A DNA stretch of 64,000 bases from Syntrophorhabdaceae bacterium (GCA_963666485.2 CAXXUO010000002.1:256001-320000), one strand, 5' to 3'; positions 10,928 to 40,290 are shown, counted from the stretch's first letter. Notes: generated by a model from the sequence alone, not told the origin. Made by a program: numbers and translations.

Positions 10928-10939
10928 AAATACCGGGAC

Positions 10940-20285: not shown

Positions 20286-20514
20286 AACGATTTCCTTTCG
20301 TGCGCCGGTTCACATATGCTGCCATTTATGTACCATTCATCGCCGCTGCCGGGCAAGGGCAATAACGTGAAAACCCTGGATGTGAATTGTTCGTCGGGAC
20401 CGTCGGGCCTTTCGGCTCCGGCCGCGTGTATTATATTACTCGTAGGAAAAAGGTCATTTTTCCGGGCCTTGTTCCGGCAATACATTGCTTCAAAAAGATA
20501 AGGTCGTGATAAGC

Positions 20515-21936
20515 ATGTTCGATGGACCTGAAGGAACCGTGAACGACGGCCTGAGGCTTGAAGGCGACAGCATGGGAAAGGTCTGGGTACCGGCCGACCG
20601 CCTGTGGGGGGCCGGCACCCAGCGCGCCCTCAAGCACTTCAGGATCGGCACCGACGTAAACCCCCCGGAGCTCATCAGGGCCCTCGTCATCGTGAAAGAG
20701 GCTTCGGCCATGGCCAACCGGGAATTGCTCAAGCTTGACGAAGAACGGGCGAGCGCCATCATAGAGGCCGCCCGCGAAGCTGTCTCGGGCAAACTGGACG
20801 GCCATTTCCCTTTGCCCGTCTGGCTGAGCGGAAGCGGCACGCAATTGAATATGAATGTCAACGAGGTCCTTGCGAACCGGGCCATAGAACTGATGGGCGG
20901 GATCAAAGGGACCAGGTCGCCGGTCCATCCCAACGATCATGTCAACATGTCGCAGTCGACGAACGATGTCTTCCCGACGGCCATGAACATTGCGGCCCTG
21001 ACCGCTATCCGGGACCATCTCGGACCGGCTGTCCGGAAACTGGCGGACGGCCTTGAAGAAAAGGCGAAGGCATGGGCCGGCATCACGAAGATCGGCAGGA
21101 CGCACCTCATGGATGCGGTGCCGCTCACCCTGGGCCAGGAGTTCTCCGGGTACGCCGCCATGATCGGCGACGATCTCGCGAGGCTCGACGCCGTACTTCC
21201 CGGACTTTATCACCTTGCCATCGGCGGTACGGCAGTGGGTACCGGCATAACAGCGGAAAAGGGGTTCGGGGACGCAGCCGTGCGCCATATTGCCGGGATC
21301 ACGGGCCTTCCGGTTTCCCCTGCTCCGAACAGGTTTGCCGTGCAGGGCGCCCACGATGCGATGGTCATGGTGAGTGCTGCCCTGAAAGGCATGGCCGTTT
21401 CCCTTTTCAAGATAGCCAACGACATCCGGCTTCTCGCCTCCGGGCCCGACGCGGGTATCCGCGAGCTTATTCTCCCCGCTAACGAACCGGGGTCCTCCAT
21501 CATGCCCGGCAAGGTAAACCCGACCCAATGCGAGGCAATGACCATGGTGGCCGTGCAGGTGATGGGCTATGACCTGGCGGTGGCTTTCGCCGGCGCCGGC
21601 GGCTACCTGGAGATGAACGCATACAAGCCGCTCATTGCATTCAATGTCATCCAATCGATCCGGCTTATCTCGGATGCCTGCAATTCATTCGAGACATTCC
21701 TTGTTGCGGGACTCAAACCGGATAGAAAAAAAATAGATGACTATGTGAATCGCTCACTGATGCTCGTGACGGCCCTCGTACCGGTCATCGGTTACGACAG
21801 GGCCGCCCGGGTGGTTGACCTGGCTGTCGCCGAAGGCCTTACACTCAAGGATGCGGCCCTGAAGCTCGGCTGCATTTCGGCCGAAGAGTTCGATCGCGTT
21901 GTCGATCCTTACAGACTGGCACATGACAACGCGTGA
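20515..21936 (+). CDS. fumC: Class II fumarate hydratase
   Basis: GSGTQLNMNVNEV, HPNDHVNMSQSTND, KIGRTHLMDA, GSSIMPGKVNPTQCE. Confidence 0.95.
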   Translation: MFDGPEGTVNDGLRLEGDSMGKVWVPADRLWGAGTQRALKHFRIGTDVNPPELIRALVIVKEASAMANRELLKLDEERASAIIEAAREAVSGKLDGHFPLPVWLSGSGTQLNMNVNEVLANRAIELMGGIKGTRSPVHPNDHVNMSQSTNDVFPTAMNIAALTAIRDHLGPAVRKLADGLEEKAKAWAGITKIGRTHLMDAVPLTLGQEFSGYAAMIGDDLARLDAVLPGLYHLAIGGTAVGTGITAEKGFGDAAVRHIAGITGLPVSPAPNRFAVQGAHDAMVMVSAALKGMAVSLFKIANDIRLLASGPDAGIRELILPANEPGSSIMPGKVNPTQCEAMTMVAVQVMGYDLAVAFAGAGGYLEMNAYKPLIAFNVIQSIRLISDACNSFETFLVAGLKPDRKKIDDYVNRSLMLVTALVPVIGYDRAARVVDLAVAEGLTLKDAALKLGCISAEEFDRVVDPYRLAHDNA

Positions 21937-21957
21937 CGTGGTGGAGGTATTCATCCC

Positions 21958-23679
21958 ATGATCTTCGATTATGACATAGTGATCGCCGGCGCGGGGCTCG
22001 CGGGTTTGCGGGCCGCGGTGGAGGCCGTGGGAGGGGCCCGCGTCGCAGTCGTATCCAAGGTCCTGCCCACACGCTCCCATTCAGGGGCAGCCCAGGGAGG
22101 GATCACCGCCGCGCTCGGCAACGAGGAGGAGGACCGCTGGGAATGGCACCTGTTCGATACCGTCAAGGGCGGTGATTACTTAAGCGACCAGGACGCCGTC
22201 GAGATCATGGTGAGGGACGCGCCGCGGGCGATCTACGAACTGGAACACATGGGGGTCCCCTTCAGCCGCACAAAGGACGGCAAGATAGCCCAGAGGAACT
22301 TCGGGGGCCACACGAGGGATTTCGGCAAGGCGCCTGTGAAGCGCGCCTGCCATGCGGCGGACCACACCGGGAGGGTGGTCCTCGATACGCTCTACGACCA
22401 GGCCCTCCGGCAGAACGTGAGATTCTACGCGGAGCATCATGTCCTGTCCCTCGTTTTCCGCGATGGGCGGTGCGCGGGTGTCGTGACGTACGAACTCGCC
22501 ACGGGCGAGGTGAATTTCCTGCGGGCAAAAATAGTCCTGCTTGCGACCGGCGGCTGCGGCAAGATCTATCAAACGACATCAAATGGTTTTGCCACCACCG
22601 GCGAGATCCTGAACCTCGCCTACCGGGAAGGCGTCCCGCTCCAGGATATGGAGTTCGTCCAGTTTCACCCGACCGGCCTGTTCCCGCTCGGCATCCTCGT
22701 CAGTGAAGCCGCGCGGGGCGAAGGAGGGGTCCTGCGCAATAACGCGGGGGAGGCCTTCATGGAACGGTATGCGCCGAAGATCAGGGACCTGGCAGCCCGC
22801 GACGTTGTCTCCCGGGCGATCCTGAGCGAGGTCCGCGCGGGGCGCGGCATCGGGGGAAAGCCGTATGTTCACCTCGATCTAACCCACCTGGGGGAACAGA
22901 AGATAACCGAGAAACTCTGGGAGATCACCTCGTTCGCGCGGACCTACCTCGGCATCGACGCCGTCACGCAGCCCATTCCCGTTGCACCCACCTGCCATTA
23001 CCTGATGGGCGGGATCCCGACGGACTTAGACGGCAGGGTCCTTGCCGATGAAAAAGGCCGGACCGTCCCCGGGCTCTATGCGGCGGGCGAATGTGCCTGC
23101 GTGTCCATACACGGCGCAAACCGGCTCGGGTGCAACTCGCTCCTCGACCTCGTCGTCTTCGGCAGGCGCAGCGGAAAAGCGATGAAAGACGAGCTGCCGG
23201 GGATGGTTTCCGTGCCGGGCCCCGACCCGGCCGAGATCGTCAAAGAAATGCTTGCGTCACTCCTCGAAAGGGAAGGAACGGAAAGATCCCACGTGATACG
23301 GCAGGAAATGCAGGCCCTCATGACGGAACGCGCCTCCGTCTTTCGCACGGGGGAAGGTTTGAAACAGGGATTGGATTCCATCAGGTCTCTGAAGGAAAGA
23401 TACCTTCACCTGCCGGTGACGAACAGGGCGGGGCCGTTCAATTATGACCTCATGGAAACGATCGAGCTAGGCCATCAACTGGAGCTCTGCGAGGTGATCC
23501 TCACGAGTGCGCTCAACCGGAGAGAGAGCCGCGGCGCCCACTACCGGGAAGATTTTCCCGAAAGGGACGACCGGAACTATGTGAAGCACACCCTCGCATT
23601 CGATGCGCCCGGGGGGCCGCGGATAGAATATAAACCGGCGGTGATAACCAGGTTCCAGCCAGAGGTGAGAGTGTACTGA
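21958..23679 (+). CDS. sdhA: Succinate dehydrogenase/fumarate reductase flavoprotein subunit
   Basis: [16 protein letters not shown] (covalent FAD His), [33 protein letters not shown]. Confidence 0.95.
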
Positions 23680-23688
23680 TGACGGGAG

Positions 23689-24396
23689 GTGTCCGTGGCT
23701 ATAAGGCTCAAGGTCTTTCGCTTCGATCCGGCAAAGGATGAAAAGCCGTATTACAAGGACTATGAGGTCGACGCCGAACCCACGGACCGGCTTCTCGATT
23801 GCCTGAACCGTGTCCGCTGGGAGAAGGACCCTGGCCTTTCCTTCCGCATGTCGTGCGGCCACGGCATCTGCGGGTCGGACGGCATGCGTATTGACGGGAT
23901 GTGCGGGCTTCCCTGCCAGAGGCTCGTCAAGTCGCTCGGGCCCGAGGTGCTCATCGAGCCCCTGCCCGTGTTCAGGGTGATCAAGGACCTCGTCGTTGAC
24001 CTCGAGCCGTTCTTCGAAAGATACCGTTCGATAAGGCCATACCTCATCGCCGCCGAACCGCCCGGCGACGAACGCAGGCAATCACCGGACGAGGCCCGCC
24101 TGCTGGAAACGTCGGTGCGCTGCATCCTGTGTGCCTGCTGCACCGCGTCATGCCCGGTGAACCAGGACCCGCAGACCACGGACTACGTGGGGCCCGCCGC
24201 CCTGGTCCGGGCCTTTCGTTATCTTTTCGACTCGCGGGACGAGGGCCTCGCGCAGCGCCTGCCCGTTCTCGACAGGAAAGAAGGCGCGTGGGGCTGCCGG
24301 ACCCTGTGGAAATGCACGGAGGTCTGTCCCCGGAAGATCCCTGTTACGAAGCTGATCGGCCAGATCAAACGGAAGATCTACGAGACGAAAAAATGA
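23689..24396 (+). CDS. sdhB: Succinate dehydrogenase iron-sulfur subunit
   Basis: SCGHGICGSDG, CILCACCTASCP, CRTLWKCTEVCP. Confidence 0.93.
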   Translation: MSVAIRLKVFRFDPAKDEKPYYKDYEVDAEPTDRLLDCLNRVRWEKDPGLSFRMSCGHGICGSDGMRIDGMCGLPCQRLVKSLGPEVLIEPLPVFRVIKDLVVDLEPFFERYRSIRPYLIAAEPPGDERRQSPDEARLLETSVRCILCACCTASCPVNQDPQTTDYVGPAALVRAFRYLFDSRDEGLAQRLPVLDRKEGAWGCRTLWKCTEVCPRKIPVTKLIGQIKRKIYETKK

Positions 24397-24412
24397 AGGG
24401 CGAACCGCGGCT

Positions 24413-27400
24413 TTGCCGGTGGAGAAATGCGACGTGAGTCCGGCTGAATTGAACGTCCGTATCGTTGAAAGAGGAAAAGAGCTTAACGCGGCCCTCAAGG
24501 GAGAGAAACCGTCCCTTTTTCAGCGATCACGGTGGGTTGGCACGGTCCTCACCTGGCTTCTCAGACATGATGAACTGCGTGCCGGCGTATTTCGCTTTGT
24601 CGATGTATTCCCCGCCCTCGCCACGTCCGCGATGCTGGTCGACCACCTCGAGGACCTCGCAAGGTCCGACGGTTTGCACGCACCCATCCGGTGGGCCGTG
24701 CACCGTGCCCTGGCGGGAGACGGGCTTGCGAGGTCCGCCCTCGCCACGACGGTCCGGTACACGATGCGAAAGCTGGGCGAACAATTCATGGTGGGTGAGA
24801 ACACGGGAGATGCCGTTCGGAGGCTTTCGCATATACGCCGTGAAGGGTGTGCCTTCTCGGTCGATATTCTCGGAGAATCGGTCCTGAGCGAGGCTGAGGC
24901 CCGGGAGTACCGTGACCACTACCTCGATCTCATCGGTGCGCTCGCGCAAGCCCAAAGGCACTGGCCGCCCCTTGGCACGAAGGACGATCAGCCTGACCAC
25001 GACTGGGGATATCACCCGAAAGTAAACATTTCCCTCAAGCCGACATCTCTCTATTCGCAAGCCAGGCCCGTCGATTTCAATAACTCCGTCGAGGCGATGG
25101 TCGCACAGATCCGGCCGGTGTACGAAAAACTGCTCGGCAGCGGCGGTTCCCTTTGCATCGACATGGAATCGTACCAGTACAAGGACCTGTCGCTTGAGGT
25201 CTACAAACGGCTCAGGGCCGAATATCCCGGTCATCCCCACCTCGCCGTCGCCTTGCAGGCCTACCTTACCGACACGGACAATGACCTTTCCGAATTGCTC
25301 GACTGGAGCGACAGGCAGGGACTGCCTGTCTCGATCCGTCTCGTGAAAGGCGCCTACTGGGACCACGAGGTAATGAGGGCCCGCCAGAACGGCTGGGACG
25401 TCCCGGTCTACAGGGAGAAGGCGAAGACCGATGCCTCTTTCGAGCGCAACGCGCTGCGCATTCTGTCCCACCCCACCGCCTACCTTGCCTGCGCCTCCCA
25501 CAATATACGCTCCATCGCCGCAGTGATGGAGGCAGCCAGGTCCCTGGGCGTTCCGGACAACCGCTACGAGTTCCAGATGCTCTACGGCATGGCGGAACCC
25601 ATCCGGAGGGCCCTCGCACGAATGACCGGCCGGGTGCGGCTTTATTGCCCGTATGGCCGGATCGTGCCCGGGATGGCCTATCTCGTGCGCCGCCTTCTTG
25701 AAAATACCGCCAACCAGAGCTTCCTGCGCCTCGCCTTCACACGGGTGAAAGATGTCGACGCCCTCCTTGCAGACCCGGCGGGATTGACGGCTGAAGGCGG
25801 GACCGTCCCGGCCGTCTCTACCGGTCCTGCAGCCTTTTCCAACCAGCCGCCGGCCGACTTCACAAAGCGCGAGGAACGCCGCCTCTTCGCCCGGGCGGTG
25901 GCACTCGTCCGCCGGGAGTTCGAAAAGCCCTGCCCCCTCTTCATCAACGGCGAGGACAGGGCCACCGGGGATGTACTTCCCTCACTGAACCCGGCCGATC
26001 CTGACGAGGTGATCGCCCGTGTCTGCCAGGCGGGACGGGATGATGTGGACGATGCCATCGCGGCGGCGCAAAGCGCCTTCATGCGCTGGCGCGAGACGGA
26101 AAGCCCCGTCAGGGCCGGATACCTTACGGCTGCCGCGGCCTGGATGAGAGACCACAGGTACGAACTGGCGGCCCTGCAGGTATGGGAGATCGGCAAACAA
26201 TGGGGCGAGGCCTCATCCGACGTGGCGGAAGCCATCGACTACCTGGAATATTATGCCCGCGAGATGATACGGCTCGGCGTGCCCCATCCCCTTCCCTCGG
26301 TCCCCGGTGAGGTCAATAAGTACCTGTATGAGCCCCGGGGCGTCGCCGCCGTGATCGCGCCGTGGAATTTCCCGCTCGCCATTACGACCGGGATGGTCTC
26401 AGCGGCCGTCGTTACCGGGAACTGCGTGGTCTACAAACCCTCTCCCCTTACCCCCGCGGTCGGCCGCAGCCTGGCAGACGCATTCAGGGCCGCCAATCTG
26501 CCGGCGGGCGTTTTCAATTTCATCCCCGGCCGCACCGAGGTCATTGCGGAATACGTGATAAACCATCCTTCGATCGCCACCATTGCCTTCACCGGGTCTA
26601 CGCAAACCGGTCTCAAGATCATAGAGAGCACTGCGATCACCCGGCCCGGGCAGGTATGTGTCAAACGCATGATATGCGAAATGGGCGGAAAAAATGCGAT
26701 CATCATAGACGACGACGCCGATCTCGATGAGGCGGTACCCGGGGTCCTCGTATCCGCCTTCGGCTTCCAGGGTCAGAAATGCTCCGCCTGCTCGAGGGTC
26801 ATTGTCCTCGAAACCATATACGATGCCTTTGTCGAGCGCCTGGTCAGCGCGGCCGAATCGCTCCCGCTGGGCCCCGCGAGCGATCCCGCTTTCGTCCTGG
26901 GCCCCGTCTGCGACGCCGCCTCCCGGGCGAGGATCTCAGGCTACATCGAGACGGCTGCCCGGGAAGGGAGGGTCCTCTATAAAGGCAGGACGCCGCCTGC
27001 CGGCAATTATGTACCCGTTACCATTGTGGGCGATATCGCACCCGGGCATCGGCTCGCCGAGGAAGAGATATTCGGACCGGTCCTCGCCGTCATGAAGGCC
27101 AAGACCTTCGGGCAGGCCCTCGACGTTGCCAATTCAACGATGTATGCCCTCACGGGAGGCGTGTTCAGCCGGAATCCGCGCCACCTTGACGAAGCACGGA
27201 AAAGATTCCGGACGGGCAATCTCTATCTGAACCGCCATATTACCGGTGCCCTTGTGGGCCGCCAGCCCTTCGGCGGTCTTAAGATGTCCGGACTTGGCAC
27301 GAAGGCGGGCGGTGAAGGATACCTGCTTCATTTTATGGACCCCCGGGTCATTACGGAAAACACCGCGCGCCGGGGCTTTTCCCCGGAGTTGCTCGACCGG

Positions 27401-27430
27401 GGACGAAACGGCGAAAGGACGAAACGGTAG
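24413..27430 (+). CDS. putA: Bifunctional proline dehydrogenase / P5C (glutamate semialdehyde) dehydrogenase
   Basis: FRFVDVFP, IDME, LQAYL, IRLVKGAYWD, ASHN, YLVRRLLEN; ALDH motifs PWNFP, EMGGKN, GQKCSACS, EEIFGPV. Start approximate. Confidence 0.95.
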   Translation: MPVEKCDVSPAELNVRIVERGKELNAALKGEKPSLFQRSRWVGTVLTWLLRHDELRAGVFRFVDVFPALATSAMLVDHLEDLARSDGLHAPIRWAVHRALAGDGLARSALATTVRYTMRKLGEQFMVGENTGDAVRRLSHIRREGCAFSVDILGESVLSEAEAREYRDHYLDLIGALAQAQRHWPPLGTKDDQPDHDWGYHPKVNISLKPTSLYSQARPVDFNNSVEAMVAQIRPVYEKLLGSGGSLCIDMESYQYKDLSLEVYKRLRAEYPGHPHLAVALQAYLTDTDNDLSELLDWSDRQGLPVSIRLVKGAYWDHEVMRARQNGWDVPVYREKAKTDASFERNALRILSHPTAYLACASHNIRSIAAVMEAARSLGVPDNRYEFQMLYGMAEPIRRALARMTGRVRLYCPYGRIVPGMAYLVRRLLENTANQSFLRLAFTRVKDVDALLADPAGLTAEGGTVPAVSTGPAAFSNQPPADFTKREERRLFARAVALVRREFEKPCPLFINGEDRATGDVLPSLNPADPDEVIARVCQAGRDDVDDAIAAAQSAFMRWRETESPVRAGYLTAAAAWMRDHRYELAALQVWEIGKQWGEASSDVAEAIDYLEYYAREMIRLGVPHPLPSVPGEVNKYLYEPRGVAAVIAPWNFPLAITTGMVSAAVVTGNCVVYKPSPLTPAVGRSLADAFRAANLPAGVFNFIPGRTEVIAEYVINHPSIATIAFTGSTQTGLKIIESTAITRPGQVCVKRMICEMGGKNAIIIDDDADLDEAVPGVLVSAFGFQGQKCSACSRVIVLETIYDAFVERLVSAAESLPLGPASDPAFVLGPVCDAASRARISGYIETAAREGRVLYKGRTPPAGNYVPVTIVGDIAPGHRLAEEEIFGPVLAVMKAKTFGQALDVANSTMYALTGGVFSRNPRHLDEARKRFRTGNLYLNRHITGALVGRQPFGGLKMSGLGTKAGGEGYLLHFMDPRVITENTARRGFSPELLDRGRNGERTKR

Positions 27431-27462
27431 CTATGCGGCACAGAAAGGATTATAATTTCTAG

Positions 27463-28470
27463 ATGACACATACAGTCACTCTCATTCCCGGTGACGGCAT
27501 CGGTCCCGAGGTTTCTGCAGCCGCGCTGCGCGTTATTGAAGCAGCCGGTGTCGATATCGCGTGGGAAAGGTTCGACGTCGGGAACCGCGCCCAGGAATCG
27601 TCAGGCTCTTCGCTCCCCGATGAGGTCATCGAATCCATCAGGCGCAATGGCCTTGCCCTCAAAGGCCCGGTCGCCACCGAGATCGGGAAGGGCTTTACGA
27701 GCGTCAACGTTCGATTGCGCAAGGCACTCGATCTTTATGCCAATTTACGCCCTGTGCGGAAGCTCCCGGGAGTCGAGACACCCTTTGGCGACCTCAACCT
27801 CGTCGTCGTCAGGGAAAACACGGAAGACCTCTATGCGGGCATCGAACACGAGGTCGTGCCGGGGGTCATAGAATCACTGAAGATCATCACCGAAAAAGGG
27901 AGCACCCGCATCGCCGCCTTTGCCTTTAATTATGCAAGGACATTGGGACGAAAGAAGGTCACCGCCATTCACAAAGCGAACATTATGAAGATGTCGGACG
28001 GGCTGTTCCTGAACTGCTTCAGGCGTGTCGCCGCCGATTACCCGGACATCGAACACGACGAAATGATCGTCGATACCGCGTGTATGAAGCTTGTCATGGA
28101 CCCGCATCAATTTGACGTCCTCGTGATGGAGAACCTTTACGGGGACATCATTTCCGATCTCGCCGCAGGCCTTGTGGGAGGTCTCGGGGTCGTCCCCGGC
28201 GCCAACCTGGGCGAAAAGGCGGCTATTTTCGAGGCCGTACACGGCACGGCGCCGGACATTGCCGGGCAGGGCCTCGCGAACCCCACGGCAATACTCCTGT
28301 CCGTCGTCATGATGCTGCGCCACCTCGGGGAAGAAAACGCAGCATCGGGCATCGAAACCGCGTTGAACAAAGTACTCACACAACGGGAAAAGACGACGCC
28401 CGACCTTGGAGGCAGGGCTTCGACCACGGAGTTTACAGACGCCGTCATTACGGCCCTTGAACAAACGTAA
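27463..28470 (+). CDS. icd: Isocitrate dehydrogenase, NAD-dependent type (IDH/IPMDH family)
   Basis: IPGDGIGPEV, KGFTSVNVRLRK, RENTEDLY, HKANIMKMSDGLF, NLYGDIISDL, FEAVHGTAPDIAG; TCA gene context. Confidence 0.8.
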   Translation: MTHTVTLIPGDGIGPEVSAAALRVIEAAGVDIAWERFDVGNRAQESSGSSLPDEVIESIRRNGLALKGPVATEIGKGFTSVNVRLRKALDLYANLRPVRKLPGVETPFGDLNLVVVRENTEDLYAGIEHEVVPGVIESLKIITEKGSTRIAAFAFNYARTLGRKKVTAIHKANIMKMSDGLFLNCFRRVAADYPDIEHDEMIVDTACMKLVMDPHQFDVLVMENLYGDIISDLAAGLVGGLGVVPGANLGEKAAIFEAVHGTAPDIAGQGLANPTAILLSVVMMLRHLGEENAASGIETALNKVLTQREKTTPDLGGRASTTEFTDAVITALEQT

Positions 28471-28581
28471 AACATACGATGGGAGCCTATCGGCGATGAA
28501 TCGCCACCCGGTGTACCGGCTTGCGGCCATGCGAGAATAGTTGTACACTATCAGGCACAGTTGCTTTTTCAGGAGACTCAC

Positions 28582-31518
28582 ATGGCCAAAGCAAAAGACC
28601 CGGCCGAAGAGGAACTTGACACGGGAATCTCTAAGCTTTATCCACTCACGAGCGCACCCCAGACCGTAAACAGGGCGGAAGAGGAACCTTTCCGGATCAC
28701 ATCCGGTTGGCTCGAGATCGCGGAACAAGCCGCAGATGCGGGATTCTATGACTGGGACATGGTCACGGAACAGCTCACGTGGTCCCGGGGGATATACCAC
28801 CTGTTTGGTCTTTCTCCCGATGTAAAAGCAACCTTTGATACGTGGCTTGCGGTGATGCACCCTGACGACCGTGAACCGGCGATGGCAAGGATCCATCAAT
28901 CATGCGAGGAAAGGCTGCCCGGCAGAAACGAGTACCGTATCATCCTGCCTGGCGGGCAAGAGCGGTGGATAAGCGCATTCGGGACGACATTTTACGATGA
29001 GGCCGGCAAACCTTTTCGGCGTTGCGGCATCTGCATCGATATAACCGAGCGCAAGCAGTCGGAGGCCACGCTCAACAGAAGCGCGGAAAGGCTGGCCATT
29101 ATATCGGATACAGCCAACCGCCTCTTGATGAGCAAGGAGCCTCAATCGATCGTTGAAGACCTGTGTCAAAAGGTGATGGAACACCTTGATTGCCACGTTT
29201 TTTTCAATTTCCTCGTCGATGATGAAAGGAACTGCCTGCGGCTCAATGCTTATGCGGGAATCCCGGAAGAGACAGCCCGGGAGATCCATTTCCTGGATTA
29301 TGGTGTTGCCGTATGCGGCTGCGCGGCCAGGGACGCGTGCCGGATCGTAGCGCAGAACATCCCCACGACCCCGGATATCAGAACGGACCTCGTCCGTTCG
29401 TTTGGAATCACCGCCTATGCCTGCCACCCCCTGTTCGCACAGGGCAAAGTCATCGGGACCCTTTCTTTTGGTACCCGGTCGCGTCTTACCTTTAGCCAGG
29501 ACGAACTCTCCCTCATGAAAACTGTAGCCGACCAGGTTGCCATCGCGATGGAACGCATACGCCTTTTGCGGTCGGCGCAGGCGCGTGCCGAAGAACTCGA
29601 GCTCCGTGTCGGGGAACGTACTGACGAACTTCGGCAGGCCCTGCAATCGCTTTCCCGGGGCAGACAACGGTTATACGATGTGTTGGAGACGCTGCCCGCC
29701 TACGTTGTACTTCTCGCGCCGGATTACCGGGTCCCGTTCGCGAACCGTGTTTTCCGGGACCTTTTCGGCGATCCTGCCGACAAGAAGTGTTTTGAACATC
29801 TCTTTGGATGGACCGAACCATGTGAGACGTGTCAAACCTATGAAACGCTGAGGACCTCGATGCCCCAGCATTGGATGTGGGCCGGCCCGAACGGGCGGAC
29901 GTACGAAGTTCGTGATTTCCCCTTCACGGACACGGACGGATCTGCCCTTATCCTCGAGATGGGCGTGGATATAACGGACCAGAAACGTGCGGAGGAAGAG
30001 GTCCGTCTCGCGTATGCCTACAACCGGAACCTCATTGAGGTAAACCTCGACCCTCTCGTGACAGTCAGCCCGGACGGCCGGATAGCGGACGCGAATACAG
30101 CAACGGAAAGGGTGACGGGGTATTCCCGCGAAGAACTGATCGGCACGGATTTCAGCGATTACTATACCGAGCCTGAAAAGGCAAAGACCGGATATTTACT
30201 GGCCTTCGAGAAGGGCGCCGTAAAGGACTATGAACTCGCCATCCGCCACCGCGACGGACATGTTACGCCTGTCCTGTACAACGCGTCTGTCTACAGAGAT
30301 GAAACCGGCAAGGTGAGCGGTGTTTTCGCCGCAGCCCGGGACATGACCGACCAAAGGCGCCTCGAAAGCGAGCTTCGCCACTCCCAGAAGATGGAAGCTA
30401 TCGGCACCCTGGCGGGAGGCATTGCGCATGACTTCAATAATATGCTGGCCGCCATTCTCGGTTTTACGGAAATGGTCATGGAAGATACGCGCGACCGTTC
30501 CGACGTGCAGAGAAGTTTGCAGAACATCTCAAGGGCAGCCATACGAGCACGGGACCTGGTGAAACGGATCCTCACCTTCTCCCGCAGGACGGAGGAGCAA
30601 AGAAGTCCCATTTCCCTGTCACCCATCATCAGGGAGACAGTCGAGTTGCTCCGTGCTTCTATCCCTGCAATGATCGATATCGAACTCTCCCTCACGGCGA
30701 CGTCCGACACGGTCCTCGCCTCACCGCTGGACGTGCAGGAGGTCCTCATGAACCTTGTCACCAACGCCTCCCTTGCAATGCCGGAAAAAGGGGGGACTAT
30801 CGAGGTGAGCCTCAGCGACATCGACTTTGCGCCCGAATCAACCGTGCAAGGTTTTGAAGTAGTGCCGGGGGAGTATGTTCAGCTGGTTGTAAAGGATACC
30901 GGCTCGGGCATGGGGCCCGACGTGATGAAAAGGGTCTTCGATCCCTTCTTCACGACACGGGAAGTCGGGAAGGGCACGGGCATGGGTTTGGCGATGGTAT
31001 ACGGCATCGTGCAGAACCTGCAGGGTACCGTTACAGTTGAAAGCGAGGTCGGAGCGGGTTCTACCTTCAGAGTACTCCTGCCCAAGGTCAAGGCGGATAC
31101 ACAAGCGGAGGTAGAGCAGCCTGCCGCGGTCCCTCGCGGCAACGAGCGGATCCTCTTCATTGATGATGAACAAATGCTTGTCGAATGGGGGCGGATCACG
31201 CTTGAGCGCCTTGGTTACACGGTAACCACTATGACGGACAGCCGGGAAGCATTGAAAACTTTTTTTGCCGGTCCTTTCCTCTTTGACCTCGTCATTACCG
31301 ACCATTCCATGCCGCAGATGTCCGGGGTTCAACTCGCCAAAGAGTTTCTCTCAGTAAGAGGAGACATACCCGTGATCCTCTGCACCGGTTACAGCGACGC
31401 CGTTAATTCGGAAACAGCGAGAGCGGAGGGCATCAACGACTTCCTCATGAAACCCCTGTCCAAAGAGGAATTGGCGATAGCGATCAGAAAAGCGCTTGAC
31501 ACAAGATGCGCCGTGTGA
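28582..31518 (+). CDS. Hybrid sensor histidine kinase (PAS-GAF-PAS-PAS-HisKA-HATPase-REC)
   Basis: RBS AGGAG. GGIAHDFNN H-box, NLVTNA, DTGSGM, FDPFFTT, GTGMGL; receiver ILFIDDE...DLVITD...KP. Confidence 0.93.
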   Translation: MAKAKDPAEEELDTGISKLYPLTSAPQTVNRAEEEPFRITSGWLEIAEQAADAGFYDWDMVTEQLTWSRGIYHLFGLSPDVKATFDTWLAVMHPDDREPAMARIHQSCEERLPGRNEYRIILPGGQERWISAFGTTFYDEAGKPFRRCGICIDITERKQSEATLNRSAERLAIISDTANRLLMSKEPQSIVEDLCQKVMEHLDCHVFFNFLVDDERNCLRLNAYAGIPEETAREIHFLDYGVAVCGCAARDACRIVAQNIPTTPDIRTDLVRSFGITAYACHPLFAQGKVIGTLSFGTRSRLTFSQDELSLMKTVADQVAIAMERIRLLRSAQARAEELELRVGERTDELRQALQSLSRGRQRLYDVLETLPAYVVLLAPDYRVPFANRVFRDLFGDPADKKCFEHLFGWTEPCETCQTYETLRTSMPQHWMWAGPNGRTYEVRDFPFTDTDGSALILEMGVDITDQKRAEEEVRLAYAYNRNLIEVNLDPLVTVSPDGRIADANTATERVTGYSREELIGTDFSDYYTEPEKAKTGYLLAFEKGAVKDYELAIRHRDGHVTPVLYNASVYRDETGKVSGVFAAARDMTDQRRLESELRHSQKMEAIGTLAGGIAHDFNNMLAAILGFTEMVMEDTRDRSDVQRSLQNISRAAIRARDLVKRILTFSRRTEEQRSPISLSPIIRETVELLRASIPAMIDIELSLTATSDTVLASPLDVQEVLMNLVTNASLAMPEKGGTIEVSLSDIDFAPESTVQGFEVVPGEYVQLVVKDTGSGMGPDVMKRVFDPFFTTREVGKGTGMGLAMVYGIVQNLQGTVTVESEVGAGSTFRVLLPKVKADTQAEVEQPAAVPRGNERILFIDDEQMLVEWGRITLERLGYTVTTMTDSREALKTFFAGPFLFDLVITDHSMPQMSGVQLAKEFLSVRGDIPVILCTGYSDAVNSETARAEGINDFLMKPLSKEELAIAIRKALDTRCAV

Positions 31519-31566
31519 AAAGAAACATCGCAGAGTTCCCCGGATCGTCCGAACCTATCTTCTCAA

Positions 31567-33201
31567 TTAAATCTCGCAGATGAGGTTCCCCAGTTCTTCC
31601 GAGAATGTCGCGTAGTTCGCCGAATAATCTATGGGACATTCCACGACTGCCGGCCGGTTGAGCGCGAAGGCCTCGTTGAGAACGTGCGAGAGATCGTCCC
31701 CTTCCCGGACGGAAAAACCGGCGGCGCCGAAACTCTCCGCAAATGTGACGAAGTCCGGGTTCCCGAGATCGAGGCCGAAGTTCGTGAACCCCTTGGCCTC
31801 CTGCTCCCACTTGATGAACCCGTAGGCGTTGTCATTGAGAATGAGTACGACCACGGGAATGTTGCACCGGATGGCTGTTTCGAGTTCCTGGGCGCTCATC
31901 ATGAAGCCCCCGTCCCCCACGACGGCAAGCACTCTCCGGCGGGGATTCAACATCTTTGCCGTCATTGCCGACGGCAGACCCGCCCCCATGCTCGCGAGCG
32001 CATTGTCGACGAGGAATGTATTGGGTTTGTAGGTTTTGTAAAGACGGCAGAACCACAGCTTGTAAATGCCGTTGTCGAGAACGACGATATCCTCTTCGTC
32101 GAGAACGTCCCTGACATGCCGGACCACGTCCCGCGGCTGAAGCGGGAATCGAGCCTCGATCTGCCCTTCCAGCTTCCCGCTTAAGAAAGCCCGTACAGCG
32201 GGGTATATCTCATCGTTTCTCCGCGGCGTGATCTGCGCCTCGAGCATGCGAAGGGCCGAAGCGACATCCCCCGTCACCTCGAGGACCGGGTTGTAGTATT
32301 TATCCAGTTCAGCCCCGGAAAAGTCGATGTGGACGATCTTCTTGTCGAGGTTCCTGTTCCATACGTATGGCGGGTACTCCACGATGTTGTAGCCGATCGT
32401 GATGACGACATCCGCCCGGTCGATGCCGCAGCTCACAAAATCGCGGCGATGTATCCCCGTACTGAAAAGGCTGTATTCCGATGCGTCGGAGAGCACGCCT
32501 TTGCCCATCTGGGTATGAACTGCATAGACCCCCGTGTTCTCGACGAACGAGGCCAACTCCCCGGTGATACGGTTTCGATTGGCACCCCCGGACAGGAGAA
32601 TGAGCGGGTGGCGCGCTCCGTTAATGAATCCGGCGGCAAGGGCCACGGCCTTCGTGTCCGGGGCAGATCGCCGGGCAATGCCCGGCGGCTGTACGACCGC
32701 ACCGGTATCATCCTCAGCCACATCCTCGGGCAGTTCGATATGTACCGCACCCGGCCGCTCGGCCTCGGCAAGTTTGAAGGCGTTGCGCACGACCGTTGCG
32801 ACCGTGCCCGGATCGACGACGGAGGTGGAATCCTTGGTGATCGGCGACATGAGGCCCACGACATCGATGAGCTGAAAACGCGCCTGCCTGTTGTCCCGCA
32901 AGGCCTTCTGCCCCGTGATGGCCACGAGGGGTGCGCCGATGAGCTGTGCGTGGGCAATGCCGGTAACGAGGTTCGTCGCGCCCGGGCCTAAGGTCGAGAA
33001 ACAGACGCCTGCCTTCCCCGTCAGCCGCCCGTACGCGGCGGCCCGGAATGCTGCCGCCTGTTCGTGGCGGGTAATATGCACCTCAATCTTCGATGTGCGC
33101 AGTGACTCGAGAAAAGCGAGGTTCTCTTCACCCGGCAGACCGAAAACATGCCTCACGCCCTCTTCCTCGAGCTGCCTCACCATCAGGTCGGATGCCTTCA
33201 T
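31567..33201 (-). CDS. TPP-dependent acetolactate-synthase-like enzyme, candidate 2-oxoglutarate decarboxylase (OgdA-like)
   Basis: FGLPGEENL, RHEQ, STLGPGATNL, TPP motif GDGGFMM...LNDNAYG. Directly downstream of SSA dehydrogenase in a TCA operon. Confidence 0.85.
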   Translation of the reverse strand: MKASDLMVRQLEEEGVRHVFGLPGEENLAFLESLRTSKIEVHITRHEQAAAFRAAAYGRLTGKAGVCFSTLGPGATNLVTGIAHAQLIGAPLVAITGQKALRDNRQARFQLIDVVGLMSPITKDSTSVVDPGTVATVVRNAFKLAEAERPGAVHIELPEDVAEDDTGAVVQPPGIARRSAPDTKAVALAAGFINGARHPLILLSGGANRNRITGELASFVENTGVYAVHTQMGKGVLSDASEYSLFSTGIHRRDFVSCGIDRADVVITIGYNIVEYPPYVWNRNLDKKIVHIDFSGAELDKYYNPVLEVTGDVASALRMLEAQITPRRNDEIYPAVRAFLSGKLEGQIEARFPLQPRDVVRHVRDVLDEEDIVVLDNGIYKLWFCRLYKTYKPNTFLVDNALASMGAGLPSAMTAKMLNPRRRVLAVVGDGGFMMSAQELETAIRCNIPVVVLILNDNAYGFIKWEQEAKGFTNFGLDLGNPDFVTFAESFGAAGFSVREGDDLSHVLNEAFALNRPAVVECPIDYSANYATFSEELGNLICEI

Positions 33202-33221
33202 CTGCCCTCCCGGAATATGCA

Positions 33222-34598
33222 CTACTCAAGTACAACGACACTCTTGACGTTCACAAACTCCTTGAAGCCGTAGTGTGACAATTCCCTGCCGACACCGGAG
33301 CGCTTCACGCCGCCGAAGGGCAGCCGGGGATCTGATTTTACAAAATCATTGATCGCAACGACCCCGGCCTCGAGCTGCCCGGCAAGGCGCTCGGCCCTCA
33401 CGAGGTCCCGTGTCCATATCGACGCACCGAGCCCGTACTCGGTCGCGTTGGCGATCCGGACAGCCTCTTCCTCACTGTCGACCACGATGATCGGCGCGAT
33501 CGGCCCGAACACCTCCTCTTTCAAGACCTTCATATCTTCGGCAGGGTTCAAAACAACCGCGGGTGCGAAGAAAAAACCCTTGCTGAACGAATGTTCCCCT
33601 TGTATGACCTCGGCACCCTTTTCCCGGGCATCCTTGAGTTGTTCCTTCAGGTTATCAAGGAAATCTTTCCGGGAAAGCGGGCCAATATCTGTGGCCTCAT
33701 CCATGGGATCGCCGATCTTCAACTGCTGCATGCGTTGAACGAAGATCTTCTGGAACTCACCGGCCACTTTCCTCAAGACGATGAAGCGCTTGGCTGCAAT
33801 GCAGCTCTGGCCGGTGTTTAGCGTCCGGGCTGTCACCGCGGTCTGCGCCGCTCTTTCTATGTCCGCGTCTTCAAGGACGATGAAAGGATCGGAGCCGCCC
33901 AGTTCGAGGACGACCTTCCTGATGTTCCTTCCCGCCGCCTTACCCACCTCAGCACCTGCTCTTACACTTCCGGTCAGGGTAACGGCATCCACTTTATTTT
34001 CATCAAGGAGGGAAAGAGCCTCGGGAGGTTCTACGAACACTGCCTTGAGGACACCGGGAGGGAAGCCCGCCGTGAGGAACGCCGCCTCGATGGCACGGGC
34101 GGTGGCCGGGACGGAAGGCGCATGTTTCAGGATCACGCAGTTGCCGGCAACGATCGCGGGTATCCCGAACCGGAAGACCTGCCAGAACGGGAAGTTCCAG
34201 GGCATGATGGCCAGAACGATCCCCAGCGGGTCGAACCGTATGTAGCTCCTCTTCGCCTCGGTCTTTATCTCTTCGGGACGCAGCACGGCCGCCGCGTTCT
34301 CCGAAAGATAATCGCACAGCCACGCGCACTTCTCGATCTCACTCAGAGCCTCGCGGATAGGCTTGCCCATCTCCCGGGTGATAAGCCCCGCGTACTTCCG
34401 CTTTTCTTCACGCAGGCGGGCCGCCAGCCGCCGCACGCAGGCCACTCTTCCCTCCAGGGGTACAGTGCGCCAGGCGGTGAAAGCTGCGCGGCATCGGGCC
34501 GTCGCCTCGTCAAGCTCCGCTTTTGTCATGAGGGGGAATTCTTCAACAACGTCTTCGGTATAGGGGTTGATCGACTGCATCTTTCCCATTTTTATCAT
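33222..34598 (-). CDS. NAD(P)-dependent succinate-semialdehyde dehydrogenase (Sad/GabD1 type)
   Basis: [65 protein letters not shown] overlap with gltA. Confidence 0.88.
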
Positions 34599-35830
34599 CC
34601 TTTCGGTGCATCTCTTTTTTCTACAGGCTCGTAGACGCATCCCGTCTTGCCGCAGTAGTGGCCGACATACTCGGATAAAGGCCGGTAGAGGGCGGGCTTT
34701 TCCTGCGCGTCGGCGAATTTCTCCTCGATGACGTGCGCCGTCCAGCCCGCGACCCGTGCGACCGCAAAGACCGCAGTCATGAGGTCGATCGGGATACCTA
34801 AGAAATGGTACACAGAGCCGCTCCAGAAATCAACATTGGGCCTGACCGTCTTCTTGCCCCGCGCGGCAAGCTCGGCGGTCGCCGCCGTCTCGATCCCGGA
34901 GAGAAGCCCGCACCAATCGTCCCCGTGAAACCTTTTCCCGAGGGTGAAGCACATGGACCGCAAAAACGGTGCGCGGGGATCGAGGGTCTTGTACACCGCG
35001 TGGCCGAGGCCCATGATCTTCTCCCCGGCTTCAAGGTGGTCCCGTATCCATCCGGGGATATCTTTCTCTGTGCGAAGCTCGAGGAGCATCTCCATGACCC
35101 GGGCGTTGGCCCCGCCGTGCAGGTCCCCTGAAAGGGCCCCCACTCCCGCGGCGATGGCAGCATACATGTGGGCCCCCGTCGAGGCGACCTCCCGGCAGGC
35201 AAACGTGGACGCATTGAATGAATGGTCGGCATGAACGAGCAGCGCGATATCGAGATCGCGGGCCATTTCGCCGTCGGGCTCTTTGCCGGTGAGCAGCCAC
35301 AGGAAGTTGGCTGCATGCGGCAGGGACCGGTTCGATGGAAGGGGTTCGGCCCCCTGGCGTATCCTGTGCCAGGCGGCCACGATCACGGGCACCCGGGATA
35401 TAAGGCGTATGGCACTGGCCATGTTCGCCTCACGCGATTCATTGCCAAGGTCCGGGTCGATCGTTGCCAGGACCGGGACGGCGGCCTGGAGCACATCCAT
35501 GGGATGGGATTCCCGGGGCAGTTTTTTCAGCACGTCGAAAATGAAGTCAGGCACCGTCCGCGCCTCGACGAGGAGCCCGGAGAACCTCAGGAGCTCATCC
35601 CTGCCGGGAAGTTCGTCATGGTGAAGCAGGTACGCCGTTTCCTCAAACGTCGACTCCCGCGCCAGTTCCTCTATCCGGTATCCCCGGTAGATGAGGGTCC
35701 CGTTCTCACCGTCTACATGGCTGATCTTTGTATCGGCCACGGTAACGCCCCGCAAGCCGATATTCTTAACCCTGACGGTTGTCCCCGTCTTTTCACCTGC
35801 AGATGATGCTGCTCCGGCGGTCTCAGTCAT
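34595..35830 (-). CDS. gltA: Citrate synthase (Si-type)
   Basis: GLRGV, HPMDVL, HADHSFNAST, LHGGAN, MGLGHAVYK, DPRA, PNVDF. Confidence 0.93.
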   Translation of the reverse strand: MTETAGAASSAGEKTGTTVRVKNIGLRGVTVADTKISHVDGENGTLIYRGYRIEELARESTFEETAYLLHHDELPGRDELLRFSGLLVEARTVPDFIFDVLKKLPRESHPMDVLQAAVPVLATIDPDLGNESREANMASAIRLISRVPVIVAAWHRIRQGAEPLPSNRSLPHAANFLWLLTGKEPDGEMARDLDIALLVHADHSFNASTFACREVASTGAHMYAAIAAGVGALSGDLHGGANARVMEMLLELRTEKDIPGWIRDHLEAGEKIMGLGHAVYKTLDPRAPFLRSMCFTLGKRFHGDDWCGLLSGIETAATAELAARGKKTVRPNVDFWSGSVYHFLGIPIDLMTAVFAVARVAGWTAHVIEEKFADAQEKPALYRPLSEYVGHYCGKTGCVYEPVEKRDAPKG

Positions 35831-37778: not shown

Positions 37779-37796
37779 AGCGTCACCGGATATGCA

Positions 37797-38831
37797 TTAC
37801 GTGAAGACACGCCTGTCTATCTCGGACAGGGAGTTGCAGCCCGTCATGATCATCGCTTTCCTTAAATCCTGGGAAAGGAACCGGGCTTCGGCGACGACAC
37901 CGTCCGCCCCGCCTCCTATGGCGGCCCGGATGAATTCCCGGCCCACGCCCACGAAGTCGGCCCCCAGGGCAAGCATTTTCAATACGTCGAAGCCGGTACG
38001 GACACCTCCGTCCGCGCCAATGACCACCTTGCCTTTCAAAATAGGTACCAGCCGCGGCAGGACCTCGGCGATCCCCGGCATGGAATCGAGGATGCGGCCG
38101 CCGTGGTTCGAAACGACGACCATTGTGCAGCCGGTCTCCAGCGTTGCCGCCGCGTCCTCTTCACTTGTGATCCCCTTGAGTATGAAGGGAAGCGATGTGG
38201 CGTGAACCAGTTCTTTCAGTTCAGCTATTGACTTCCGGAAAACGGGCTGGCCTTTCAGGGCCATCACAACGGAGCCTGCACCATCGAGATCGACCCCCAC
38301 GGCAGCCGCCCCGGCTTCTTCGGCCTCCTTGATGACGCGAAGCAGGACAGCTTGCTCACGCGGCTTGAAGATCTGCACGCCCCACCCGCCGGCTTCCCGT
38401 ATCGCCTGCAGCCCGGGCCGGCCCTCAAAAGTTTCGGCGGTATCACCGGCAAATGAGATGGTCCCCGCCGCCTTGCACCCTCCGATCACCGCCCGAAAGA
38501 AGTCGGCTTCACTGATCGCGCCCCCCATGCTGATGTTGACCCCGCTCATGGAGGAACAGTAGATCGGGGCGTTGATCTCGTGCCCGAAAAAAGAAATTTT
38601 CATTTGCGGTTCGGCATGCCCTGAGATCAGGCGGGACTTCAACCGAAGGCGGTCCAGCGCTTCGACATTCGCCGCGAAGGTGAGACCTTTCCCGATCCCT
38701 CCCATCCCCAGGGGCTTGCCATACTTGATGCCCTGGCAGAGCCGGTCCGGCCGGCCGTCACACACCTTGTAAACCGCGCAGTATCCCTTCATCAGTTCCC
38801 GTGCTTTATTCCGGGCATCCGTCAGATCCAT
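37797..38831 (-). CDS. FMN-dependent alpha-hydroxy-acid dehydrogenase with N-terminal Cys motif
   Basis: PFILKGI, VVSNHGGRILD, DGGVRTGFDVLKMLALGA; N-terminal CAVYKVCDG...C. RBS GGAGGT before ATG 38831. Confidence 0.88.
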   Translation of the reverse strand: MDLTDARNKARELMKGYCAVYKVCDGRPDRLCQGIKYGKPLGMGGIGKGLTFAANVEALDRLRLKSRLISGHAEPQMKISFFGHEINAPIYCSSMSGVNISMGGAISEADFFRAVIGGCKAAGTISFAGDTAETFEGRPGLQAIREAGGWGVQIFKPREQAVLLRVIKEAEEAGAAAVGVDLDGAGSVVMALKGQPVFRKSIAELKELVHATSLPFILKGITSEEDAAATLETGCTMVVVSNHGGRILDSMPGIAEVLPRLVPILKGKVVIGADGGVRTGFDVLKMLALGADFVGVGREFIRAAIGGGADGVVAEARFLSQDLRKAMIMTGCNSLSEIDRRVFT

Positions 38832-38930
38832 GAGAACCTCCCGAAGTCGCTCGTGCACACGTGCGCCTTCATACGTTCGTACTAAAGTGAACGTAATGCG
38901 TGAGGGCACTGCCGTCAAATTCTTATCGGC

Positions 38931-40232
38931 TTAAGGGAATATCCCGCGAAGCCTCGTGGCCTCTGCGATGCGCCCGATGCTGAGGATGGTTGCCGCCGTC
39001 CGCATGTCCGTGTTGTATCTTTTGGCCAATACTCTGACCTCGCCGAAGGCCCTCAAGAGTATTCTCCTCAGCCGCTGATAGACCTCGTCCGCACTCCAGA
39101 GCAGTTCCTGCAGGTTCTGGACCCACTCGAAATAGGAAACGACGATCCCGCCCGCGTTCGCCAGGATGTCGGGGACGAGAAAGATGTCCCTCTGCCTGAG
39201 TATATCGTCGGCCGCCGGGGTCGTCGGCCCGTTGGCGCCCTCGATGACCATACGGCACCGCAGTTCGGCCGCGTTCTTTTCCGTTATCTGGTTCTCTATT
39301 GCGGCGGGCACCAGGATATCGCATTCCGTCCGAAGGAGTTCTTCATTGCTTATCTCGTCCCCGTCGATCCCGCCCTGCGTGAAACAGCTGCCGTCCGCCT
39401 TGCACGCAAGGGCCTTGGCGACGTTAAGGCCGCGGGGATTATAGATCCCCCCGTTGATATCGGAAATGGCAACCACTCTGGCCCCGGCCCGCATGAAGAG
39501 CCGGGCGGCCGTTCCCCCGACGTTCCCTGCCCCCTGTATCGCCACGGTTGCATCTTTGAGCGCCAGGCCTTTAAGCCGTGCCGCCCTCTCGGCGACGATC
39601 AAAAGGCCCCGGGCGGTCGCTTCCAATCTTCCCCGGGACCCGCCAAGCTCGAGCGGTTTTCCCGTCACGATACCCGGCACCGGGTGGCCGGTCCTTATAC
39701 TGAACGTGTCCATGACCCATGCCATGACCTGGGGGTTTGTTGCAAGGTCGGGGGCAAGTATGTCCGTCTCGGGACCGATGAACGGCGATATCTCCCAGGT
39801 AAAACGGCGCGTCATATTCTCGAGTTCCCGGAGCGACATGGTGCCAGGATCGCATTTCACCCCGCCTTTCGCGCCGCCGAAAGGAACGTTGACGACCGTC
39901 GCCTTCCACGTCATCAGCATGGCGAGGGCCTTCATCTCGTCAAGGTTTATCCCGGGATGGAACCGCAAGCCCCCCTTGAAGGGGCCCCTCGTGTCGTTGT
40001 GCTGCACGCGGTATCCCTCGAAGACGCGGATGCCTCCATCGTCCATCCTGACCGGGAAGTGGACAACGATCTCCCGTTTTGTCTGCTTGATCTTTTCGAG
40101 GATGCCGGGGTCTACGTGAGGCAGGTACCGGGCAGCGGTCTCCACCTGCCGTACGGCCATCTGCGCGAGATTTACCTTTCCGTCGTTCGCGGTCCCCGAT
40201 CTTCTTGCTGATGGTTTCTCTGACAGGGCCAA
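38931..40232 (-). CDS. gdhA: Glutamate dehydrogenase (Glu/Leu/Phe/Val family)
   Basis: GYRVQHN, GPFKGGLRFH, PFGGAKGG, VTGKP, QGAGNVG, EGANGP, ANAGGIVVSYFEW. Confidence 0.92.
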   Translation of the reverse strand: MALSEKPSARRSGTANDGKVNLAQMAVRQVETAARYLPHVDPGILEKIKQTKREIVVHFPVRMDDGGIRVFEGYRVQHNDTRGPFKGGLRFHPGINLDEMKALAMLMTWKATVVNVPFGGAKGGVKCDPGTMSLRELENMTRRFTWEISPFIGPETDILAPDLATNPQVMAWVMDTFSIRTGHPVPGIVTGKPLELGGSRGRLEATARGLLIVAERAARLKGLALKDATVAIQGAGNVGGTAARLFMRAGARVVAISDINGGIYNPRGLNVAKALACKADGSCFTQGGIDGDEISNEELLRTECDILVPAAIENQITEKNAAELRCRMVIEGANGPTTPAADDILRQRDIFLVPDILANAGGIVVSYFEWVQNLQELLWSADEVYQRLRRILLRAFGEVRVLAKRYNTDMRTAATILSIGRIAEATRLRGIFP

Positions 40233-40290
40233 AGGACCTCCGGTGATTTACTTCATCTGGCCGCCCATCTTTACACTCTCAGTTCTGAAC

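Follow-up and report, generated by a model that had tools for sequence, protein, structure and literature searches.

Two enzymes are described that oxidize malate to oxaloacetate, malate dehydrogenase (MDH), which depends on nicotinamide adenine dinucleotide or its phosphate (NAD(P)), and malate:quinone oxidoreductase (MQO), which uses flavin adenine dinucleotide (FAD); the excerpted text of PMC8100219 also presents the tricarboxylic acid (TCA) cycle variant in H. pylori and C. glutamicum that is closed without MDH by the NAD-independent, flavin-linked MQO. TCA gene clusters, together with NAD-independent malate oxidation by MQO, are likewise on record in the available portions of PMC9768450 and PMC8100219. 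For the step from 2-oxoglutarate to succinate, a semialdehyde bypass is established in cyanobacteria (PMC5160925), where a thiamine diphosphate (ThDP) enzyme of about 550 amino acids (aa), OgdA, accompanies a GabD-type succinic semialdehyde dehydrogenase (SSADH), SsaD, and the pair is predicted to circumvent 2-oxoglutarate dehydrogenase (OGDH) and succinyl-CoA synthetase (SCS) (PMC5160925, PMC10418658); a homologue has been noted in anaerobic Sphaerochaeta (PMC3372971), all three sources being cited from excerpts. Here we describe an island of TCA-cycle genes that may combine features of both variants, located at positions 20515 to 40232 of a 64,000-nucleotide stretch (the window) from a probably anaerobic Syntrophorhabdaceae bacterium (GCA_963666485.2, CAXXUO010000002.1:256001-320000).

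We assign a probability of roughly 0.55 to the reading that this island encodes an oxidative TCA cycle in which malate would be oxidized without NAD by a flavin mononucleotide (FMN)/iron-sulfur (Fe-S) enzyme, and in which a ThDP enzyme and an aldehyde dehydrogenase (ALDH) would convert 2-oxoglutarate, via succinic semialdehyde, to succinate. Viewed as a whole, the system is a variant form of a known pathway, with a probable new enzyme class in it. Open reading frame (ORF) calling and family scans identified twelve intact genes, bearing out the gene list, positions and strands of an initial annotation made from the sequence alone:

20515..21936, plus strand: FumC, a class II fumarase converting fumarate to malate; TIGR00979 639 bits (cut-off 665), above aspA at 440; ATG at 20515
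21958..23679, plus strand: SdhA flavoprotein, forward type; TIGR01816 790 (cut-off 727), catalytic motifs present
23689..24396, plus strand: SdhB iron-sulfur subunit; PRK05950 277 (cut-off 228)
24413..27430, plus strand: bifunctional PutA (proline to glutamate), accessory; Pro_dh, Aldedh and PutA_N domains
27463..28470, plus strand: NAD-type isocitrate dehydrogenase (IDH); TIGR00175 455 (cut-off 432)
28561..31518, plus strand: PAS-GAF-PAS hybrid histidine kinase, between the two arms; domain matches
31567..33201, minus strand: ThDP enzyme of the PRK08322 family, 544 aa, candidate 2-oxoglutarate decarboxylase; PRK08322 753 (cut-off 509)
33222..34598, minus strand: GabD/Sad-type aldehyde dehydrogenase, candidate SSADH; the start codon is uncertain, with the ORF open as far as 34640; PRK09406 495, under the cut-off of 730
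34595..35830, minus strand: type II/(Si)-like citrate synthase; the sole PF00285 copy of the genome
35823..37778, minus strand: aconitase, PRK07229 type; PRK07229 932 (cut-off 612)
37797..38831, minus strand: enzyme with the fold of FMN-dependent alpha-hydroxy-acid dehydrogenases, 344 aa, candidate NAD-independent malate dehydrogenase; PF01070 203 bits
38931..40232, minus strand: glutamate dehydrogenase (GDH) of the GdhA_Arch/GdhB-like group by family score, likely catabolic, accessory

The plus arm thus has the order fumC-like gene, sdhA, sdhB, putA, NAD-type icd and kinase gene, while the minus strand carries gdh, the gene of the FMN_dh protein, the aconitase gene (acn), the gene of the type-II-like citrate synthase (gltA) and those of the GabD-like ALDH and the ThDP enzyme. 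Intergenic gaps within each arm range from -46 to 32 nt (21 nt between fumC and sdhA, 16 nt between sdhB and putA), the exception being 90 nt ahead of the kinase. Family scans detected no kor, suc or mdh gene inside the island, in agreement with the earlier statement that 2-oxoglutarate dehydrogenase or oxidoreductase, succinyl-CoA synthetase and malate dehydrogenase are missing from it. Genes for the membrane anchor SdhC/SdhD are found neither in the island operon nor in three related clusters (in genomes G014 and G034, and at locus L031), an absence that the initial annotation did not list.

The FMN enzyme and the malate step

The FMN protein matches neither the Ldh_1 nor the Mqo domain and would therefore be a non-homologous replacement for the known malate-oxidizing enzymes. 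Its model (pLDDT 86) is an FMN-binding TIM barrel whose best structure matches are HAO1/glycolate oxidase (Foldseek TM 0.79, 26% identity). With the PF01070 oxidases and dehydrogenases (glycolate oxidase/HAO1, lactate oxidase, mandelate oxidase, LldD) it shares the fold, the His and Arg of the SNHGGR motif and the FMN-binding Lys and Asp; H243 and R246 of this motif, K219 and D181 are invariant in all 95 rows of its clade. It departs from them in a short loop 4, an added Cys-rich N-terminus with three cysteines (Cys18, Cys24, Cys32), and a Phe in place of the QIY Tyr of lactate oxidase. Two active-site Tyr residues and a second Arg have known roles in lactate and glycolate oxidases; pairwise alignment gave no clear counterpart of the other Tyr or of the second Arg, and an invariant K156 may substitute for the missing residues. 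MQO, by comparison, is an FAD enzyme of family PF06039, unlike the candidate with its TIM barrel, its conserved cysteines and its occasional fusion to rubredoxin, a domain found in 10 of 120 homologues among the matches listed, all ten bearing the clade signature described below.

In the mechanism that we propose, the 2-hydroxy acid would be oxidized at FMN by His243 and Arg246, as in lactate and glycolate oxidases, while the second carboxylate of malate would be held by a clade-specific Arg/Lys199, Ser187 and Tyr37. An Fe-S cluster on the three cysteines would then hand single electrons to a carrier (for instance rubredoxin or quinone), and transfer to such a carrier would render the malate step exergonic. 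A complex prediction for the homodimer with FMN and a 4Fe-4S cluster scored 0.02, which gives no verdict and is not used as support.

A tree of 128 rows (FastTree with Shimodaira-Hasegawa (SH)-like support; four duplicate loci and rows of less than 270 aa dropped) separates a clade of 95 rows that includes the island enzyme from a sister clade of 33 rows (SH 100). The larger clade is marked by Tyr21, Tyr37, Ser187 (95/95) and Arg/Lys199 (93/95); at these four positions the sister clade shows, respectively, Cys, a gap, either Arg or a hydrophobic residue, and Pro. The sister clade, to which we assume Desulfovibrio DVU2784 belongs, is 38-49% identical to the candidate and likewise has a Cys-bearing N-terminus, but differs in having four cysteines, Pro199 and no Tyr37 loop. 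The two clades also differ in genomic context, with a TCA gene within 3 kb at 65 of the 95 clade loci and at none of the 33 sister loci; when only loci with at least 4 kb of flank are counted, the figures are 38/48 and 0/26. Since the rows are kin, a Fisher p value for this contrast is overstated. Named members with the clade signature include Thor-, Hel- and Hodarchaeota, and the ESM Atlas returned FMN_dh clusters only, with automatic names. A subclade of seven loci (L111, L125, L126, L133, L153, L154, L167) has lost the three cysteines and kept Tyr37, Ser187 and Arg199; three of the seven lie beside gltA or acn.

Metagenome neighbourhoods were compared for the best 80 of 451 confirmed loci. 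In 52 of the 80 (9/16 close relatives and 43/64 relatives at 46-57% identity), the FMN gene has a core TCA gene no more than 3 kb away; the background for positions across this genome is 3.5%. At this distance gltA was counted 29 times, fumC 20 times and gdh twice, and in 17 of the 64 distant relatives the FMN gene directly follows fumarase. Operons of the type sdhA-sdhB-fumC-FMN-gltA recur, one of them (L135) preceded by sucD/sucC and korA. The neighbouring 'fumC' genes scored best as fumarase, not aspartase, in all 13 cases tested (3 over the cut-off), and all six neighbouring citrate synthases tested scored best as type II; KorB-like subunits, ATP-citrate lyase and phosphoenolpyruvate carboxylase were among the other neighbours in the 130 of 239 flanking ORFs scanned. 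No match to MDH or lactate dehydrogenase (LDH) was found near the FMN gene in any of these loci.

Entire genomes display a corresponding pattern. In one sample of 301 Desulfobacterota genomes, with MDH defined as a score over the TIGR01763 cut-off, MDH was present in 218 genomes and in none of the six carriers of the clade. Mqo (PF06039) was found in 0 of 17 carriers. Of 16 further carriers, nine are without any Ldh_1 member, a tenth contains a weak fragment, and those remaining carry Q102 LDH, R102 LDH-like or divergent proteins of this family. For (Si)-citrate synthase the counts are 7 of 9 FMN carriers of the order and 0 of its 21 other members, a contrast that partly reflects location in the same operon.

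Its position between fumarase and citrate synthase, its clade-specific basic residue and the absence of MDH make malate the likeliest substrate, and we consider it quite likely that the FMN protein is an undescribed NAD-independent FMN/Fe-S malate dehydrogenase. The literature searched, which covers few subscription journals and includes excerpts of PMC9386147 and PMC11976288, describes no malate dehydrogenase of the FMN_dh family, and a search on the TCA cycle of this lineage gave no description of an FMN-dependent malate dehydrogenase.

The broader proposition is one that we favour with slightly more reserve: that the widespread FMN/Fe-S clade of Desulfobacterota, Syntrophorhabdales and Asgard archaea, whose members are annotated as lactate or hydroxymandelate oxidases, represents a third, non-homologous class of malate dehydrogenase, here closing a respiratory TCA cycle without MDH, MQO and OGDH, and doing so in a lineage that is considered obligately syntrophic. 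If so, TCA cycles rated incomplete in many anaerobes and archaea would be closed by this class, and a widely misannotated family would be corrected. NAD-independent malate dehydrogenase activities without an assigned enzyme have reportedly been observed in sulfate reducers, and the class might account for them.

The semialdehyde step and TCA genes elsewhere in the genome

The closest structures to the island ALDH in the PDB are the SSADHs 4it9 and 3vz1 (E 4e-123), and its gene adjoins the ThDP gene here and in the close relatives examined. The ThDP enzyme keeps the catalytic residues E47, D430, D457, M405 and Y460, equivalent by motif offset to E50, D435, D462, M410 and Y465 of the cyanobacterial (Microcystis) enzyme MaKGD in the excerpted text of PMC10418658. 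It nevertheless carries a different subfamily motif from OgdA; the cyanobacteria-like motif type is separate, at about 45% identity, and occurs in genomes G029 and G024. A comparison with plasmid sequences gave no cyanobacterial match among the matches listed. The original 2011 paper on the bypass is said to mention relatives in methanogens and anaerobes.

Three observations favour a bypass: the ALDH-ThDP pair is also part of another TCA operon, one with a different gene order (L098, L229); clusters without the pair often carry suc or kor genes (L135, L037); and the two carriers in the genus have only the weaker of two SucD-like types. Genes for SucD-like proteins were found in 23 of 24 genomes tested, with a type scoring 357-372 bits in all genomes of the genus (g1) and a second type scoring 437-446 bits in 7 of its 10 island-free members and in neither carrier, this genome and G014 having only the lower-scoring type (357-364 bits). 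On balance we favour a role of the ThDP enzyme and the SSADH as a semialdehyde bypass. The initial annotation had three non-standard genes fitting the gaps of the cycle exactly; of these assignments, the malate step has strong comparative support and the step from 2-oxoglutarate to the semialdehyde moderate support.

The cyanobacterial pair differs from the present one in that the latter sits within a whole TCA operon, in a host that also encodes KorAB-like and SucCD-like proteins. Seven matches to the alpha subunit of 2-oxoacid:ferredoxin oxidoreductases (POR_N), KorAB-like genes and a SucCD-like pair outside the island led us to reject a genome-wide absence of 2-oxoglutarate:ferredoxin oxidoreductase and SCS; neither SucA nor Mqo was found in this genome. 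Also outside the island are a malic enzyme gene adjoining that of a class I fumarase, a distinct aconitase/NADP-IDH cluster, which includes a homocitrate-synthase-like gene that we take to encode a Re-citrate synthase, and a separate NADP-GDH on contig C9. The genes of a second SdhAB (C1:1195610-1199870, L006) share their operon with those of a small membrane protein, a Rieske-like protein and a cytochrome b, and this operon could be the source of an anchor for the anchorless SdhAB of the island. With TCA-related genes encoded elsewhere, and without an acetyl-CoA source, SDH anchors (for succinate dehydrogenase) or an acceptor of its own, the island cannot be self-contained, contrary to what had originally been proposed; acetyl-CoA, the anchor and the terminal acceptor would have to be supplied by genes outside it.

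The possibility raised in the initial annotation that korAB, sucCD and mdh might exist elsewhere is confirmed for KorAB-like and SucCD-like genes but not for a canonical MDH, the genome having two Ldh_1 members only, each with a better LDH than MDH score. Gln102 is present in one of them. The second, an LDH-like protein (C10:73507-74493, L089), combines R102, E199, T246, H68 and I250, an intermediate pattern on an LDH-type scaffold; it has R102 relatives in G003, G014, G017 and G018, of which G003, G017 and G018 are island-free, and G086 has a further, divergent R102 member. According to the excerpt of PMC9486893, oxaloacetate as well as pyruvate is accepted by some intermediate enzymes that have T246, but the combination of T246 and I250 is unfavourable for oxaloacetate. 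In the portion of PMC13147460 available, the MDH filter consists of removing Q102 sequences only, a rule that the R102 protein would pass.

Conservation of the island and its respiratory setting

The host genome is 3.77 Mb in size and 99% complete, and, among relatives that carry a name, those nearest to the island genes are metagenome-assembled genomes (MAGs) of the Syntrophorhabdales/Syntrophales type. A single 28-kb contig from a second study spans window positions 20400-40242, kinase included, with 1631 differing letters (a relative of ~92% identity). In G014, a genome of the same genus, both arms are colinear at about 78% nucleotide identity, with the ThDP gene directly abutting icd and no kinase. 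As the contig and G014 match both arms, the arrangement is real and not due to chance or misassembly, and the synteny in related genomes that the initial annotation had left to be checked is upheld. The two arms lie about 6 kb apart in G034, where putA and the kinase are missing, and partial versions occur elsewhere (FMN-acn-gltA, with or without gdh and ALDH-ThDP); the FMN gene adjoins acn, gltA or sdh in 14 of 17 genome loci. Of 19 other genomes of the genus, one has the ThDP gene; the close FMN clade is represented in one of 16 others searched and, across the order, in 9 of 83 genomes, this genome counted. The TCA gene set of the island is conserved, but its distribution is patchy.

Proline and glutamate had been named as the substrates feeding the cycle. 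Because putA is inside the island only in this genome, G014 and the ~92%-identical relative, being absent from the G034 cluster and other related loci, and because gdh is missing from many related clusters, we regard these genes as optional entry points; PutA and GDH would be feeders in one branch. The notion that the island has its own sensor kinase is not supported. The kinase, kept in the ~92%-identical relative, has no match in the G014 island and 104 tblastn matches in its own genome, a large paralogue family, and its GC content at third codon positions (GC3) is 0.66, against 0.70-0.78 for the ten island genes measured. We read it as a later insertion that is not part of the conserved island, and its absence from G014 and G034 led us to reject it as a dedicated regulator. 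GC3 of the island genes falls inside the range of the genome and therefore gives no sign of very recent transfer; repeat and promoter scans revealed no mobile-element ends and no informative sites.

Three island enzymes, SdhAB, PutA and the FMN enzyme, each need an acceptor more positive than NAD, and the genome encodes cydAB, a CcoN-like subunit (below the ccoN cut-off) and a 769-aa PF00115 protein; the presence of cytochrome bd and a CcoN-like oxidase points to respiration with oxygen at low levels or with another high-potential acceptor. PF00115, the heme-copper oxidase family, is found in both carriers of the genus and in 0 of 10 of its other members, as well as in 9 of 9 carriers of the order, and cydA in 5 of 5 carriers tested. 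Most likely, judging from this gene content, the island would be an optional module that runs the TCA cycle oxidatively and serves respiration with little oxygen or with another high-potential acceptor. The few genomes that have the island also have terminal oxidases, which suggests that certain members of a syntroph lineage can oxidize acetyl-CoA completely through low-oxygen respiration.

Two loci with oxidase genes were noted. One region of this genome (C1:580370-595460, L249) has the CcoN-like subunit, a copper ATPase, cydAB and three genes that resemble subunits of alternative complex III by eye (no NCBIfam match at 1e-25). On contig C163 of G035, cydA lies about 11 kb from a gdh-FMN-acn-gltA-ALDH-ThDP operon.

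Alternative explanations and flanking genes

Several observations weigh against the oxidative reading, and some of them lend substance to rival explanations. On the malate side, the cysteine loop is modelled at pLDDT below 50 (residues 17-23 and 33-48), 11 of the 95 clade rows are without cysteines or truncated at that end, and 30 of the 95 clade loci have no TCA neighbour, 20 of these being short-flanked. MDH is also infrequent in genomes with the sister clade only (present in 11/24), and canonical MDH is rare across the order regardless of the island, with one clear case in 30 genomes; the anticorrelation with MDH is therefore partly a matter of lineage. The six carriers in the sample are, moreover, kin, four of them were known before the sample was drawn, and most carriers are incomplete MAGs. 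An NAD-linked malate route via the R102 LDH-like enzyme is possible, but it would not be canonical. The FMN enzyme could be an L-2-hydroxyglutarate or broad 2-hydroxy-acid dehydrogenase that would supply 2-oxoglutarate or serve in the repair of side products, with malate handled by that LDH-like protein or by the malic enzyme encoded beside the class I fumarase. The FMN gene does follow gdh here, another producer of 2-oxoglutarate, and a site for a second carboxylate would suit 2-hydroxyglutarate too; DVU2784 is named an L-lactate dehydrogenase, by homology only, in the excerpt of PMC4481167. The scarcity of gdh near the FMN gene (2 of 80 loci, against 20 for fumC and 29 for gltA), the fumC-FMN-gltA order and the lack of MDH in carriers fit the malate slot better, and we judge this alternative unlikely.

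The step to succinate is where a rival has most room. The ThDP enzyme and the ALDH might be a general 2-oxo-acid decarboxylase/aldehyde dehydrogenase pair, or the former a catabolic acetolactate synthase, leaving 2-oxoglutarate to the KorAB-like and SucCD-like proteins and making the malate step the only non-standard one. When the docked pocket of MaKGD (V382, A408, L467, Q254, K386, K471) is mapped onto the island enzyme (N377, A403, F462, H251, K381, E466), two of six residues are the same and four differ, the pocket itself being a docking on a predicted model in the available part of PMC10418658, and the mapping one by motif offset and not by full alignment. Glu replaces Lys471 in 109 of 120 ThDP homologues, in a search that reached relatives at 68% identity or more only. 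Furthermore, ThDP-ALDH pairs occur in G092 and G248 without a TCA gene within about 1.5 kb, similar pairs are found on proteobacterial plasmids, the cyanobacteria-like type forms a separate group, SucD-like genes are widespread, and this genome has seven POR_N matches. We nonetheless consider this explanation the less likely one, given the placement of the pair within two differently ordered TCA operons, the affinity of the ALDH to SSADHs and the restriction of both carriers to the lower-scoring SucD-like type. A proline/glutamate loop regulated by the adjacent kinase, as first annotated, appears improbable: putA and gdh are tightly packed in both arms here and in G014, and the kinase has been kept in one close relative, but the distribution of kinase and putA outlined above speaks against it, and acetyl-CoA and acceptors would still be needed from outside. 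Least probable of all is that the island runs reductively in a strict syntroph, as a reverse oxidative TCA cycle or an electron sink based on fumarate. The name of the host lineage does refer to syntrophs, and SdhAB, having no anchor in its operon, could be soluble; by score, however, SdhA is of the forward type and IDH of the NAD type, oxidases co-occur, and, as a matter of general chemistry, decarboxylation to the semialdehyde and its subsequent oxidation are effectively one-way. One respiratory observation also counts against the oxidative module, namely the presence of PF00115 in 6 of 7 island-free members of a family of the order (f3).

The genes flanking the island differ between genomes. 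A cyclopropane fatty acid synthase gene (cfa; window positions 40291-41598, minus strand) is situated 58 nt upstream of gdh. In G014 other genes occupy that position, and cfa was rejected as an island member. On the other side, window positions 12177-20285 (minus strand) hold two radical SAM genes (one SPASM-maturase-like), a major facilitator superfamily exporter and an 895-aa Cys/Pro-rich repeat protein without a family match, possibly a peptide-modification cluster. This segment replaces the DNA that, in G014, joins fumC to a region matching window positions 7438-12094. Finally, a predicted secreted protein of 1921 aa is encoded at window positions 46361-52126 on the minus strand.

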